A stretch of 64,000 bases of DNA. Origin: a virus. Its lineage: Duplodnaviria > Caudoviricetes. The stretch covers positions 76,447 to 140,446 of the IMG/VR virus record IMGVR_UViG_3300028533_000484. One strand, written 5' to 3'. A program made the translations under genes and the position numbers. This document shows, piece after piece, positions 13,998 through 18,629 of the stretch (position 1 is the first letter of the stretch; each line of letters begins with the position of its first letter). The notes under the pieces are model-generated. The model was not told the origin of the DNA. It saw only the letters and a program-made list of their open reading frames with translations, and ran no database searches.

Positions 13998-15002
13998 TTA
14001 GATTTTACTTACAAGTTCTTTAAGCTCTTCATCTGGATACTGTTGCAATACCCACTTACCTATTCTTGAAGCTAAATCTTCCAAACCACCTGTTGTCTCG
14101 CTCTGAGTAACTAAGTGCTGTAAATCACTATTTTCATGATTTACATCCTCATTTTCGTTTTGATTGTTAATTAAAAGTTGTTCTGTAATCTCTGTGATTA
14201 ATTCATCTCTCTTCTTTGTATCAATAGTACCAGGAGAGTTTTCTATAAAGTTGTTAACCCAATCCTTGATATGTCTATTCAAGTCTTTATTATTGAATGT
14301 ATTAGGATATCTATCCTTTACACCTTTCAAAGCACTGTTTATAGCTGTACCGTTTCTGCAGGCAGAATATATAGCATCTACAATACGACTATGCAATCGA
14401 ACAATTGGATTTTCATTAGTTTGTGCATCTAACATGTTGCTCACAACTTTTTTCTCTGGCTCAGTATTAATTTTATTTGCTACATTTGTAAAGTAATCCT
14501 CTACAGTCATATCCGAAGGAGATGAAAGTCCACTCATTCCTAGCAATGTTTCATGAAAATGAAATGTGTCTTCTAGAAAGTTTACTGCAAGTTCATTAGC
14601 TTCGAAAGCAGAAGCTTTACCTCCAAATAAATGTTTGAAATACTGGAAGAAATCTTTATTTGAATTCTCTCTAATGTGACCAATAAGCTCTTGAATATAT
14701 CTTTTACCTTTTTCAGGTGATTTTATCACATCGTCATTAGGAAAAAAAGTTTTCTCTAAACATTTAGAATAATAAAAAAGAAATGAGGCTTGTAGTTTAG
14801 GAATAAAATTAGGACACTCTAATTGTAATCTGTATCTAAGTTTTTTCCAATTCTCATCTTGCGAATCTAACATCTGTAAAAAGGAATATATAGAACTTGT
14901 TACTTCTTGTAATTCAGGAACTGTAGCTGCATTAACATTGTTAAGAGCTGCATGAAGTTTTCCCAAATCCTGAATATATGTAAAATTTAACCTACTGCTC
15001 AC
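13998..15002 (-). CDS. Hypothetical protein
   Basis: 334 aa helical ORF in the operon. Confidence 0.75.
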   Translation of the reverse strand: MSSRLNFTYIQDLGKLHAALNNVNAATVPELQEVTSSIYSFLQMLDSQDENWKKLRYRLQLECPNFIPKLQASFLFYYSKCLEKTFFPNDDVIKSPEKGKRYIQELIGHIRENSNKDFFQYFKHLFGGKASAFEANELAVNFLEDTFHFHETLLGMSGLSSPSDMTVEDYFTNVANKINTEPEKKVVSNMLDAQTNENPIVRLHSRIVDAIYSACRNGTAINSALKGVKDRYPNTFNNKDLNRHIKDWVNNFIENSPGTIDTKKRDELITEITEQLLINNQNENEDVNHENSDLQHLVTQSETTGGLEDLASRIGKWVLQQYPDEELKELVSKI

Positions 15003-15005
15003 TTA

Positions 15006-15452
15006 TTACTCCTTTTCAGATTTTGTTGCAACCAATGCTTCTAGAGAAGCTGCTCTCAACTTTCCTAAAAAGTCTTTTAAGCACAATCCAACATCTGCAG
15101 GTGACTGAGCTTTTTTCATTCTTGAAAAGATTTCAGGTAAACCTTTTACTTCTACGAAAGGATTGGCCTTACTTACAGTTTTAGATGTAGTTTTAGTTTC
15201 AGTAGATATCTCATCACTTTTTTCAACGGAATCGTCTTCAGTTGAATCTTCATCCTCAGCTACATCATCTTCTTCATCTACCTCTTCGTCAGATGCTTCA
15301 GTATCCTCTTCATCATCCTTTTCATCATCCGGTTCAGCACCAGCCTCTTTCAAATTAAGATTATCTGAATCTTTATAATCATCAAGATTCAACATATAAT
15401 CTTCTTTAAGATTTAAAAGATTTTTTATAGCAGTGTCTTTTGATTTTTTCAT
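15006..15452 (-). CDS. Acidic prohead core/scaffold-like protein
   Basis: D/E-rich, LNLKE twice. Confidence 0.6.
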   Translation of the reverse strand: MKKSKDTAIKNLLNLKEDYMLNLDDYKDSDNLNLKEAGAEPDDEKDDEEDTEASDEEVDEEDDVAEDEDSTEDDSVEKSDEISTETKTTSKTVSKANPFVEVKGLPEIFSRMKKAQSPADVGLCLKDFLGKLRAASLEALVATKSEKE

Positions 15453-15471
15453 ATTGTTTTCCTCGCTTTAA

Positions 15472-15798
15472 TTAGTTTTTTGTTAAAAAAGTTTCAATTC
15501 TGCGGATTCTTTCAGACTGAGAACTTAAGTTTTTTTGAAATCTTTCTATAGATTCTCGAGTTAATTTCTTTGAAGTACGTTTCATGTTTTTCATTTCAAG
15601 AAGAGGATTTTTTACTTCATATTGATCTTCAACATCCTCATTTAATTTTTTCTGTCTTTTATTAAAATACTTGTTAAAATCTGCATCGAAGTTTTCTTGG
15701 AGATCTTGAAGCTCAAGCTCGTAATCTCTAGCTTGCATGTAATCAAAATCATCAAAATTAACAGTATCATTGTATGACATATCTAATAAATTATTCAT
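15472..15798 (-). CDS. Hypothetical head-region protein
   Basis: 108 aa, CTAAAT late motif upstream, LQE/KLNE sites. Confidence 0.65.
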   Translation of the reverse strand: MNNLLDMSYNDTVNFDDFDYMQARDYELELQDLQENFDADFNKYFNKRQKKLNEDVEDQYEVKNPLLEMKNMKRTSKKLTRESIERFQKNLSSQSERIRRIETFLTKN

Positions 15799-15911
15799 AT
15801 ATATATGATTTAGTTCTTACAAACAGAAAAAAGAACTTTTTTGAAATATTTATATAGTTATAAACTATAATATTACTGAAGCAAATATTAAATTAAAGTT
15901 TCTTTAACAAC

Positions 15912-15984
15912 GCATCTATAGCTTAATGGATAAAGCTTCTACCTCCTAAGTAGAGGATGCAGGTTCGATTCCTACTAGGTGCTA
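15912..15984 (+). tRNA. tRNA-Arg(CCT)
   Basis: Cloverleaf; anticodon arm TCTAC-CTCCTAA-GTAGA. Confidence 0.85.
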
Positions 15985-16084
15985 AAGGTTGGCAGTCAAA
16001 CCTTTAAGACTCCATTTTTTCTTCTGGAAATATTTTGATTTATTTTCAGAAGAAAATTAAACTTATAACAAGTGAGGTACAGAA

Positions 16085-16246
16085 TTGGAAAGATTGGAAA
16101 GAATTGTAGATTGGCTTTTCGATACACATGATAAGGTTTTGTTTGTTGAAGATATTAGTGGTTTTGGAGCTCTATTTCTTTTTGGAACTATGATTTTTGT
16201 TGCTGTGTTGTGTTGCAGCAAAAAGCTCAGAAGCAAGTTCTTTTAG
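16085..16246 (+). CDS. Small membrane protein, 53 aa
   Basis: SD GAGGT, TTG start, hydrophobic segment GALFLFGTMIFVAVLCC. Confidence 0.55.
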   Translation: MERLERIVDWLFDTHDKVLFVEDISGFGALFLFGTMIFVAVLCCSKKLRSKFF

Positions 16247-16304
16247 GTGAATTTTTCAGATTGCACTAACTATATTACAAGCATAAATTGAAGGAGTAGA
16301 TATC

Positions 16305-16415
16305 ATGACAAAGACATTTGTAACATCTAATAACATGACAAGTTCTTATCAATGCTGTGATACTATCCAATATTCATATTGTTCGTCAATCTATTTTAGA
16401 GGTGACAACAGTTGA
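16305..16415 (+). CDS. Leader peptide 1 (36 aa, MTKTFVTSNNMTSSYQCCDTIQYSYCSSIYFRGDNS)
   Basis: SD AAGGAG; four TAT codons; stop codon overlaps the antiterminator arm. Confidence 0.7.
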   Translation: MTKTFVTSNNMTSSYQCCDTIQYSYCSSIYFRGDNS

Positions 16416-16477
16416 CCTTGTGCAAATAAAAAATGTTTGAAGAGTTGCACAGGGTTCCTAGAAATAGGAACTTTTTT
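16414..16477 (+). promoter_or_regulatory. Attenuator 1 (antiterminator/terminator) upstream of tRNA-Tyr
   Basis: GACCTTGTGCAA pairs with TTGCACAGGGTT, which overlaps the terminator GGGTTCCTA-GAAA-TAGGAACTT-TTTT. Confidence 0.75.
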
Positions 16478-16494
16478 ATTCTTCAAACAAGTTT

Positions 16495-16575
16495 GGGTCA
16501 GTCGAGCAATTGGTTGCTCAGCGGACTGTAAATCCGTGGCCTATGGCATTGGGGGTTCGAATCCCTCCTGGCCCA
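16495..16575 (+). tRNA. tRNA-Tyr(GTA)
   Basis: GCGGA-CTGTAAA-TCCGT, long variable arm. Confidence 0.9.
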
Positions 16576-16670
16576 ATATCACATTAAATCAACCAGTTTG
16601 TGAAAAGAGTTAATTTTTTTAACTATAATTAAATTATTAGCACTAATTAATTAAAGAAGGAGAAAAGATT

Positions 16671-16814
16671 ATGAAAAATTTTGTAACAAAACATTCGAAC
16701 ATAATTACAAAACAGATGTGTCAATCTGCTCTCCATACACTTTGCAATATTTTTGCTGACTCTGATTTTCAAACTAATGGGAAAGTGAAATGCGAAGGAG
16801 ACTTCAAGTCTTGA
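16671..16814 (+). CDS. Leader peptide 2 (47 aa, MKNFVTKHSNIITKQMCQSALHTLCNIFADSDFQTNGKVKCEGDFKS)
   Basis: SD AAGGAG; N-terminus similar to leader 1 (MxKxFVT); stop overlaps the antiterminator arm. Confidence 0.7.
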   Translation: MKNFVTKHSNIITKQMCQSALHTLCNIFADSDFQTNGKVKCEGDFKS

Positions 16815-16875
16815 GATAATTAATAATTTAGTTATTTACAAGGCTTGAATCGAAAAGGTTCAAGCCTTTTATTTT
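16803..16875 (+). promoter_or_regulatory. Attenuator 2 upstream of tRNA-Ile
   Basis: TTCAAGTCTTG pairs with CAAGGCTTGAA, which is also the 5' arm of the terminator AAGGCTTGAATC-GAAAA-GGTTCAAGCCTT-TTATTTT. Confidence 0.75.
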
Positions 16876-16879
16876 GCTT

Positions 16880-16952
16880 AGGATGTTAGTACACCGGTTT
16901 AGTATTTTAGTCTGATAAACTAAAGAAAGAAGTTCAACTCTTCTACATCCTA
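16880..16952 (+). tRNA. tRNA-Ile(GAT)
   Basis: TTAGT-CTGATAA-ACTAA; acceptor AGGATGT/ACATCCT. Confidence 0.8.
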
Positions 16953-16967
16953 TATAGTTAAACAAAA

Positions 16968-17174
16968 GCGTCGATTAAAACTGGTTCGAGTAATTGAGGT
17001 AACGTTCAGTAAATGAAAGAACAAAGATAATAACGGACTGAGGTAGAAACATTGTCAATCTTGGGTGTCCTGCCCGTCAGAAGAGTAATACTCTTCTTCA
17101 AGAATAAGGTGACGGATTGATGGTGTTGAAGGTTGGCTGGAGACGGCAGCGATAAATCCAGTTGAGTTTGACTT
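16968..17174 (+). ncRNA. Unidentified structured RNA (~200 nt)
   Basis: Terminal pairings GTCGA/TTGAC and AACTGG/CCAGTT; internal CCGTCA/TGACGG and AGAAGAG/CTCTTCT helices; raised GC; no ORF. Confidence 0.5.
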
Positions 17175-17250
17175 ATTTTTAACATTTTTTATGAAACAGC
17201 AATTAGCTTTTCAACTATAATATATATGTTAAAAATATTAAATTATTTAT

Positions 17251-17324
17251 AGTTCCATAGAACAACAGGTCCAGTTCACGGCCCTTTCAAGGCTGAGATC
17301 CGAGTTCAAGTCTCGGTGGAACTA
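17251..17324 (+). tRNA. tRNA-Glu(TTC)
   Basis: CGGCC-CTTTCAA-GGCTG. Confidence 0.85.
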
Positions 17325-17526
17325 AAGCTTATGTTCCTAACGGTTCGACTCCGTATGAAAATCTTGAACTGTATAAGTGCGGTATAAGCCCGATGAGATG
17401 TCAAGATATAAACGGCATAGGAAAGGAAGCATCTGACTTAAGGTTTCAGGATACAGTAGTAAACCTAGCGAAGTAGCGAAGGCCAAGTGAAAAGCGAACT
17501 CTTGCAAGAATCCCTTATAATGGGTG

Positions 17527-17604
17527 AAAGTTATAGTATAATGGAAATACAACAGCCGAGGTTATCTGGGCTGGAGATTGAAGGTTCGAGTCCTTCTGAC
17601 TTTC
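17527..17604 (+). ncRNA. tRNA-like RNA with an enlarged, non-canonical anticodon arm
   Basis: Normal acceptor, D and T arms; anticodon arm CAGCC-GAGGTTATCTG-GGCTG. Confidence 0.65.
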
Positions 17605-17610
17605 ATATTT

Positions 17611-17684
17611 GCATCAGTAGCTCAGTTGGTTAGAGCGCCTGCCTTCCAAGCAGGATGTCGAGGGTTCGAGCCCCTTCTGGTGCT
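17611..17684 (+). tRNA. tRNA-Gly(TCC)
   Basis: CCTGC-CTTCCAA-GCAGG. Confidence 0.92.
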
Positions 17685-17686
17685 CT

Positions 17687-17852
17687 AGGTGCAGCAATGC
17701 CGTGGATAGCACGTTACTAGGACTAATCTAATTGTACAAAGGAATTAGCCAGAGGATATGGTAACATACCTCGTTCTACGACTAGGTTGTTAAGGATGTT
17801 ATACCTGACGTGAGACAGCCATAAAGGTTTCGTTTAGAAGATTGCTGCACCT
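17687..17852 (+). ncRNA. Unidentified structured RNA (~165 nt)
   Basis: Perfect 12-bp closing helix AGGTGCAGCAAT/ATTGCTGCACCT plus internal hairpins. Confidence 0.55.
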
Positions 17853-17927
17853 TTAAGCAGGTTGAAACGAATAGAAACTGAATCGAAAGATTCTAATGTA
17901 GGAGTAAGCACAAGAAGCTTATTGCAT

Positions 17928-18000
17928 GGGATATTGGTAAAATGGTGCATACGCCTGACTGTCACTCAGGAGAGCGCGAGTTCAATTCTCGCATATCCCG
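17928..18000 (+). tRNA. tRNA-Asp(GTC)
   Basis: CCTGA-CTGTCAC-TCAGG. Confidence 0.88.
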
Positions 18001-18009
18001 TTTTTTCTT

Positions 18010-18105
18010 GGACTGGTCGTATAGAGGTCAATTACAGGAGGAATGCGGTCCATTGGACCAAAGCCTCCTGCCATAGCTACGTAGGTTCGAATCCTACCCA
18101 GTCCG
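18010..18105 (+). ncRNA. tRNA-like RNA with a hairpin in place of the anticodon loop
   Basis: Acceptor GGACTGG/CCAGTCC; T arm GTAGG-TTCGAAT-CCTAC; stem GGAGG/CCTCC encloses 22 nt containing GGTCC-ATT-GGACC. Confidence 0.7.
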
Positions 18106-18114
18106 TAATGCATT

Positions 18115-18188
18115 GGAGTGTTAGCTCAGTTGGTAGTAGCAAGCGGCTGTTAACCGCTAGGTCGCAGGTTCGAGTCCTGCACACTCCG
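18115..18188 (+). tRNA. tRNA-Asn(GTT)
   Basis: AGCGG-CTGTTAA-CCGCT. Confidence 0.92.
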
Positions 18189-18271
18189 AAAACCTTAACA
18201 TCTTACCTTTATGGTCCTAGGGCTGTAATGTTAGGTGGGGACCACCGGAGATGTTCCTAACATTGTTTTAT

Positions 18272-18344
18272 GCTACCTTAGCAAAATGGCTAATGCGCGT
18301 GATTTGTAATCTCGAGATTGTGGGTTCGAGTCCTACAGGTAGCT
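18272..18344 (+). tRNA. tRNA-Thr(TGT)
   Basis: CGTGA-TTTGTAA-TCTCG. Confidence 0.88.
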
Positions 18345-18346
18345 TT

Positions 18347-18419
18347 CGCGGATGGGTGAAACGGAATTCATGCCAGCCTCATAAGCTGAAGATAGCAGGT
18401 TCGACTCCTGTATCCGCAA
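18347..18419 (+). tRNA. tRNA-Met(CAT), initiator-like
   Basis: CAT anticodon, C1:A72 mismatch. Confidence 0.8.
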
Positions 18420-18421
18420 TA

Positions 18422-18549
18422 AAAACATTTAGCGGTTTGTGAAAGTGGAAGGCATTCCTTTGGACGACATGAAAGTCATAGCAAATCATAATCGAAACTG
18501 GTAAGCCTTAGCGCTGAGTACACTTACCGTTGAGTAGGCTAAATGTTTT
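18422..18549 (+). ncRNA. Unidentified structured RNA (~128 nt)
   Basis: 12-bp closing helix AAAACATTTAGC/GCTAAATGTTTT; internal GGTAAG/CTTACC. Confidence 0.5.
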
Positions 18550-18553
18550 ACAT

Positions 18554-18625
18554 CGCCTGTTACCCAAGCAGTAAGGGAGCGGTCTGCAAAACCGTAATTC
18601 ATAGGTGCAAATCCTATACAGGTGT
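18554..18625 (+). tRNA. tRNA-Cys(GCA)
   Basis: GCGGT-CTGCAAA-ACCGT. Confidence 0.85.
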
Positions 18626-18629
18626 CTAA

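Follow-up and report, generated by a model that had tools for sequence, protein, structure and literature searches.

Phage tRNA genes are usually regarded as constitutively co-transcribed cargo, and to our knowledge their regulation is largely unknown. This report concerns two tandem cassettes, each about 200 nt long and self-contained, within a tRNA array of a phage of the class Caudoviricetes. They lie in a stretch of 64,000 nt, termed the window, which forms the final 64 kb of the 140-kb IMG/VR record IMGVR_UViG_3300028533_000484. The record is judged to be about 35% complete, which at this length suggests a jumbo phage; the GC content of the phage is about 33%, and near-identical sequence is present in animal gut and faeces metagenomes. 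The array in the window comprises 27 genes on the + strand between positions 15912 and 22922, and the whole record encodes 35 tRNAs, none of which reads Pro or Trp. Each cassette runs from a promoter-like site through AAGGAG, a short open reading frame (ORF), a hairpin spanning the stop codon of that ORF and an intrinsic terminator to a tRNA gene. An initial annotation, made from the sequence alone, had described this common architecture, every element of which was found where it had been placed, and had proposed that leader-peptide attenuators gate phage tRNA genes. The recurrence of the cassette in relatives, a codon match specific to the leader reading frame and constraint acting on nucleotides or codons support this proposal, and we consider that each cassette is probably a ribosome-mediated (leader-peptide) transcription attenuator with tRNA cargo, which would exert feedback on tRNA supply.

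Two leader cassettes and their counterparts in relatives

Cassette 1, like all features of the window given in this section, is on the + strand. It opens with a promoter-like site at 16247–16276 (GTGAAT, 18 nt, TATATT), whose −10-like TATATT (16271–16276) falls within the recurring motif AACTATATT at 16268–16276; AACTATAWT has 12 copies in the window where 3.7 would be expected, and nearly all lie upstream of genes or tRNAs. The Shine–Dalgarno sequence (SD) AAGGAG (16291–16296) stands 8 nt ahead of the ATG of leader ORF 1 (16305–16415), which has 36 codons and a TGA stop, encodes four Cys and includes four TAT (Tyr) codons; its homologue in a relative is P0003. The predicted antiterminator hairpin 1 (16414–16456; −15.1 kcal/mol) has a 5′ arm that starts on this TGA, and has 6 nt in common with intrinsic terminator 1 (16451–16483), which consists of a stem at 16451–16474 (−11.1 kcal/mol) followed by a T-run. 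The gene for tRNA-Tyr(GTA) (16494–16576) begins 20 nt past the terminator stem.

The same order of elements is seen in cassette 2, with a promoter-like site at 16600–16629 (GTGAAA, 18 nt, TATAAT; AACTATAAT), an SD AAGGAG at 16657–16662, again 8 nt ahead of the ATG, and a leader ORF 2 of 47 codons plus TGA at 16671–16814 that encodes four Cys and has the homologues P0001 and P0002. The 5′ arm of the predicted antiterminator hairpin 2 (16803–16849; −21.4 kcal/mol, z = −7.7) is made up of the last three codons and the TGA, and the hairpin overlaps intrinsic terminator 2 (16840–16876; stem 16840–16868, then a T-run; −17.7 kcal/mol, z = −5.2) by about 10 nt. The gene for tRNA-Ile(GAT) (16879–16953) begins 11 nt past the terminator stem. 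Promoters belonging to the tRNA genes themselves would not fit into gaps of 20 and 11 nt, so both tRNAs must be transcribed through the terminators, and an unconditional terminator directly before these genes would make little sense. Leaders 1 and 2 are the sole ORFs within the array with a full AAGGAG SD, and terminators 1 and 2 are the two strongest on the tRNA strand within it, a stronger one (−14.8) lying just beyond the array end.

Some details of the initial annotation stood only in part. The leader start MxKxFVT that it gave fits leader 1 (M-T-K-T-F-V-T) but not leader 2 (M-K-N-F-V-T). Its count of four TAT codons before tRNA-Tyr(GTA) is correct, but four Tyr among the 35 codons of leader 1 do not by themselves amount to a significant enrichment (about 0.09 by a Poisson estimate with a Tyr frequency of 4.9%); the homologues of leader 1 in relatives have four or five TAT codons. 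It had also remarked that the two leaders together use 18 amino acids, lacking Pro and Trp, and that tRNAs for the same two are missing; both counts hold, but the coincidence is weak because the record is only about 35% complete.

Relatives of the locus were sought by several routes. A blastn search of 15900–17300 against 50,697 phage records returned similarity of the tRNA-Tyr to mycobacteriophages only and no cultured relative, and searches for related loci using a 334-aa protein and a portal-like protein gave no match. An alignment of the portal-like protein was tried as a wider search seed and left unused, as it held three near-identical phages and was too shallow. A search with thymidine kinase reached G001, a complete phage of 300,878 bp with terminal repeats (G002 is 99% identical to it and added nothing), along with the loci L003–L007, which have no tRNAs in the stretches examined. 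A leader profile search of assemblies from public runs yielded close homologues, in which leader 2 has an identity of 98% (L032) or 85% (L029, L030 and L031).

Across the cassettes, L029 and the window share about 95% identity; L029 has both of them, with cassette 1 and its tRNA-Tyr forming a stand-alone unit. It also has a third cassette (L029:13534–13738), which precedes tRNAs in the order Leu-Phe-Met-His-Ser-Val-Lys; at the counterpart in the window, tRNA-Ala (19335) and tRNA-Leu (19364) are only 28 nt apart, so cassettes are gained or lost. Both tRNA arrays of G001 likewise open with an SD, a short ORF, a terminator and a tRNA, the leader A cassette (L017:4845–5072) heading array A and the leader B cassette (L018 5468–5614, minus strand) heading array B. 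Elsewhere in G001, a tmRNA lies just upstream of leader A (L017:3984–4362), and a tRNA at L017:10690–10762 has the anticodon UUA and would read the UAA stop.

Five cassettes are thus available for comparison: two in the window, the third of L029 and two in G001. All five ORFs are open, and all five have an SD (AAGGAG, or its 5-nt core AAGGA or AGGAG) properly spaced from the ATG. The hairpin sequences are mutually unrelated while the layout is common to all five, which extends the earlier observation that the hairpins of the two window cassettes differ and their topology is kept. In three of the five, an SD-like motif (AGAGGTGA, GAAGGAGA, GGAGGAAA) is present 8–11 nt ahead of the leader stop, at window 16398–16405, window 16794–16801 and about 1516–1523 of the reverse complement of L018[:7000]; it may be a site at which ribosomes are slowed or held, or part of a small local hairpin.

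Competing hairpins, constraint and leader codons

Three structural elements of an attenuator are in place: a leader ORF with a ribosome-binding site, an intervening terminator and an antiterminator positioned at the stop. Pairing between stop and terminator was assessed by a duplex test, in which 30 nt around the leader stop were matched with the 5′ arm of the terminator, with shuffles and random genome 30-mers as the null. The duplex energies of the five cassettes are −18.5, −18.7, −16.3, −15.2 and −13.4 kcal/mol, and the complementarity is significant in all of them, with p ≤ 0.002 in four (p = 0.002 for cassette 1 and p < 0.0005 for cassette 2 of the window) and about 0.02 in the fifth. When every 16-nt window between a point ahead of the ATG and the terminator is compared, the best partner of the terminator arm begins 2–14 nt before the stop in every cassette, and the distance from the leader stop to the end of the terminator stem is 56–72 nt throughout. 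The overlap of leader stop and antiterminator, whose loss in relatives the initial annotation had named as grounds for abandoning its proposal, is therefore retained in 5/5 cassettes.

Four of the cassettes were also folded under constraint, with a ribosome footprint masked either on the stop or 8 codons upstream. A ribosome on the stop gives a mean terminator pair probability of 0.97–0.98 in all four, and the minimum free energy structure of the nascent RNA is the antiterminator, again in all four. With the ribosome stalled 8 codons upstream, the terminator pair probability falls to 0.01 in cassette 2. Of the folding behaviour expected at the outset, terminator formation with the stop masked is borne out, and a clean switch in the stalled state is seen in cassette 2 only.

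Between the window and L029, the ratio of non-synonymous to synonymous change (pN/pS) is 0.94 for leader 1 and 0.97 for leader 2, at pS values of 0.05 and 0.07, whereas four neighbouring genes have pS of 0.24–0.31 and pN/pS of 0.06–0.36; the synonymous sites of the leaders are 4–5 times more conserved than those of the neighbours. A pN/pS near 1 with low pS means that constraint on the cassettes acts on nucleotides or codons and not on proteins, which is what would be expected if codon identity and RNA structure were the function. The leaders and the segments from stop to tRNA are 93–97% identical and the tRNAs 97–100%, the two stretches from promoter to ATG 84–88%, and the spacers outside both cassettes 49–86%. 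Both promoter-like sites, both arms of antiterminator hairpin 1 and terminator 2 are invariant in relatives, the SD of leader 1 is kept in L029 and L032, and that of leader 2 retains its GGAG core. The variants of hairpin 2 are a loop base, a change of U-G to U-A and a change of A-U to G-U, the last of which makes AAG into AGG; those of cassette 1 are loop changes and an extra C in the terminator, which adds a G-C pair. Every stem change in the competing hairpins therefore keeps or adds a pair, and the remainder fall in loops.

These values bear on another account, in which the leaders are morons (small protein genes of the ordinary phage kind) that have promoters and terminators of their own, the tRNAs are expressed by leaky read-through and the alternative hairpins arise by chance. 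We regard it as very unlikely. The gene callers of the collection did annotate the leaders as genes, and a start of M-(K)-N-F is common to four of the five leaders, that of leader 1 being related; against a protein function, no purifying selection is detected on the amino-acid sequences (0.94–0.97 against 0.06–0.36) and Pfam has no significant match for the leaders. Chance hairpins fit poorly with a stop-spanning complementarity that is significant in 5/5 cassettes, and protein genes with a leader composition that follows the downstream tRNAs. Small ORFs are common among phage tRNA genes, for example in the tRNA region of phage T5 (NC_005859), where tRNA genes are interleaved with promoters and ORFs of 27–90 codons much as they are here. 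The T5 ORFs differ in that they end 0–20 nt from a tRNA (most within 10), with no terminator or alternative hairpin between, and their sequences are like those of ordinary small proteins. A proposal of attenuators in T5 was not confirmed, and the region was rejected as a precedent, its small ORFs abutting tRNAs without terminators.

Composition of the leaders, as read from the sequences, matches the tRNAs downstream strongly in three cassettes. In G001, 36 of the 40 residues of leader A fall within the amino-acid set of array A and 39 of the 47 residues of leader B within that of array B, and each leader is depleted for the set of the opposite array (own versus other, Fisher p = 6.8e-12); among random proteome windows, none was as high as either leader. 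A tRNA-Val is additionally present in array B of a relative, L033, and leader B has three Val codons to match. Leader 3 of L029 has 24 of 41 codons read by the 7 downstream tRNAs, the null mean being 9.7 (0 of 20,000 windows; p < 5e-5), and 9 of 41 read by the tRNAs upstream of it. The match is moderate for leader 2, in which 38 of 46 codons are readable downstream with strict wobble (p = 0.02) and all 46 non-start codons if U34 is allowed to read entire four-codon boxes (relaxed wobble; p = 0.005). Of the 21 distinct anticodons downstream of terminator 2, 19 are sampled by leader 2. For leader 1 the match to its cargo is not significant (p = 0.06–0.13).

Attenuators of this kind could instead report overall translation capacity or how far infection has progressed, through ribosome availability or host shut-off, with the codon match a by-product or of other use. 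Three features are consistent with such a general sensor: the window leaders use 14–16 different amino acids each, with no run of one regulatory codon; leader 1 has no significant match; and no region 1 (anti-antiterminator) was found, so that any delay or absence of a ribosome would give read-through. A general sensor has no need, however, of leader compositions that are array-specific and complementary, as in G001 (Fisher p = 7e-12), of a match to a sub-block of the array, as in leader 3 of L029, or of constraint on the synonymous sites of the leaders, and we judge it unlikely.

The codon match peaks in the ORF frame in 5/5 cassettes and drops in shifted and antisense frames, which argues for a role of translation beyond that of the RNA sequence alone. 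This bears on the alternative that the cassettes are RNA-only switches, set by a protein, a small RNA or, as in T-box leaders, a tRNA, and that the ORF is incidental. Structured non-coding RNA would give both a pN/pS near 1 and high nucleotide conservation; it would not lead one to expect an open ORF with a properly spaced SD in every cassette, a stop placed on the antiterminator arm in all five or a codon match confined to one frame. Moreover, the leader bodies have no common sequence or structure that a shared factor might recognize. A permissive Rfam scan of 14000–24000 returned tRNA hits and sub-threshold chance matches only, with no T-box, either as a Stem I specifier loop or as a T-box sequence. 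An RNA-only switch is accordingly a distinctly unlikely explanation.

Proposed mechanism and known systems

Attenuation by a translated leader would proceed as follows. Transcription would begin at the promoter-like site, and a ribosome would load on the strong SD and translate the short leader. If decoding is fast, the ribosome would be at the stop while polymerase makes the next 56–61 nt; it would then cover the 5′ arm of the antiterminator, allowing the terminator to form, and transcription would end before the tRNA. Should a slow codon anywhere in the leader delay the ribosome, or should no ribosome have loaded, the antiterminator would form first and take the base of the terminator stem, and polymerase would continue into the tRNA genes. 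Since the leaders sample codons that tRNAs beyond the terminator decode, the arrangement would amount to negative feedback on tRNA supply: tRNAs would be made when their own codons decode slowly and shut off when supply suffices. The model would require that the leader be translated in step with polymerase, that termination depend on ribosome position and that the switch act in the direction described. The physiological trigger may be a shortage of host tRNA, host shut-off or a tRNA-cleaving defence, and starvation and anticodon-nuclease defence are plausible candidates. Read-through from cassette 2 may extend over the rest of the array, the further 24 tRNA genes at 17250–22922 (+ strand) then being additional cargo; additional promoter-like sites lie within the array at 17213, 21474, 21797 and 22259.

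Several observations weigh against attenuation as described. Besides the lack of a significant match in leader 1, that leader is rich in Ser, Thr and Cys, a composition for which the model does not account. No anti-antiterminator (1:2) or pause hairpin was found, the structures upstream of the antiterminator arm being weak local hairpins, none of them recurring. The equilibrium folds of the stalled state keep much of the terminator in cassette 1 (0.56) and in both G001 cassettes (0.56–0.87 overall), so that the switch would rely on kinetics together with the stem losing its base; where these probabilities are found, the antiterminator takes away the stem base only. Losing the pairs that adjoin the U-tract suffices to weaken intrinsic termination, and termination may be weakened here in the same way. 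In some Firmicutes transcription outruns translation, which would count against coupling if the host were one of them. The promoter-like site at 17213, missing from L029, may make most of the window array partly independent of cassette 2, and a cassette scan of the other tRNA array of the record (G000 41.2–43.5 kb) found none. Lastly, contigs from RNA libraries bridge both terminators, possibly as carried-over DNA. These libraries, two metatranscriptomes from one study, were considered as a sign of transcription or read-through and not counted, given possible DNA carry-over. One such contig spans 16283–16578, from 7 nt after the −10 element to the 3′ end of tRNA-Tyr, and hints faintly at activity of promoter 1; contig ends were not used because of possible DNA carry-over and because assembly may break at a variable insertion site.

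The closest known counterparts are the leader-peptide attenuators of enterobacterial amino-acid biosynthetic operons (trpL, hisL, leuL, thrL, ilvL and pheL; see also PMC1183508). Like these, the phage cassettes have a promoter-proximal short ORF with its own SD, mutually exclusive terminator and antiterminator structures, an antiterminator arm that a ribosome at the leader stop would mask and regulatory codons related to the regulated product. The distance from stop to terminator is about 65–70 nt in trp, against 56–72 nt in the phage cassettes. The differences are that the cassettes are phage-borne and carry tRNA genes rather than enzymes as cargo, and that their leaders are longer (36–48 codons) and present a variety of codons where those of the operons repeat one or two. 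The item sensed would be the regulated product, tRNA, and not an amino acid, and with no 1:2 or pause hairpin found, an absence of translation should give read-through.

Antibiotic-resistance attenuators of Firmicutes, for example bmrB-bmrCD (PMC4191407) and mef/mel (PMC4335068), also combine a leader ORF with a terminator and antiterminator in SD-using, low-GC systems, and ribosome slowing induces read-through, as is proposed for the phage cassettes. They differ in responding to drug-stalled ribosomes, in a cargo of transporter or ribosome-protection genes and in leader codons that are unrelated to that cargo. T-box riboswitches share with the proposed attenuators the coupling of the state of the tRNA pool to a choice between terminator and antiterminator, but they bind uncharged tRNA directly, need no ORF and control aminoacyl-tRNA synthetase and amino-acid genes, whereas the sensor in the phage cassettes would be the ribosome. 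Full-text literature of incomplete coverage (few subscription journals, and not the 1980s papers on T5) yielded no account of tRNA genes controlled by a leader-peptide attenuator.

In general terms, there is a somewhat better than even chance that phages carry modular, rapidly rewritable 'codon-sampling' leader attenuators, in which a mini-gene placed before each tRNA block uses the codons decoded by that block and tRNA production is autoregulated by decoding speed. Reshuffling of arrays would add, remove and re-match such cassettes, of which L029 has three, the window two and G001 one for each array. If this is true, translation itself feeds back on tRNA supply, and a classic mechanism extends to a new gene class in which the molecule sensed is the product. 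It would offer phages a concrete way of answering host defences that target tRNA, replacement tRNAs being switched on automatically when those of the host are depleted or cleaved by defence nucleases; a viral tRNA is able to neutralize one tRNA-targeting defence system, PARIS (PMC11464382). As compact natural elements, the cassettes would also serve to read out how fast selected codons are decoded.

Neighbouring features of the array

Upstream of cassette 1, a 53-codon ORF (16085–16246) lies between tRNA-Arg(CCT) and the cassette. The C-terminal half of its product is hydrophobic, its start codon is TTG in the window and ATG in all relatives compared, and its pN/pS of 0.26 indicates a real small protein, probably of the membrane. 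Downstream of tRNA-Ile there are about 260 nt (16954–17212) with no ORF or known RNA family, which share only 71% identity with L029, differ from it in length by 71 nt and end at another AACTATAAT site, absent from L029.

Farther into the array, an ORF for a 246-aa endonuclease-like protein (19742–20482; PHROG endonuclease families) ends one base before tRNA-Ser(TGA), and DUF559-type ORFs are present elsewhere in the L029 array; homing-endonuclease traffic probably reshuffles tRNA arrays. A seven-codon mini-ORF (20896–20919; M-K-K-K-Q-R-P) with an AAGGAA SD precedes three tRNA-Lys genes by 64 nt, without a U-tract terminator. In the other tRNA array of the record, a tRNA-like gene called by ARAGORN (G000:C1:43331–43404) has an 'anticodon' of two bases.

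Between tRNA-Tyr and the promoter-like site of cassette 2 lies the variable insertion site (16581–16597), at which relatives have 0, about 290, about 2,744 or about 2,800 extra bases; the insert in L029 contains a 212-aa ORF and, on the opposite strand, the gene for a 650-aa leucine-rich repeat (LRR) protein.

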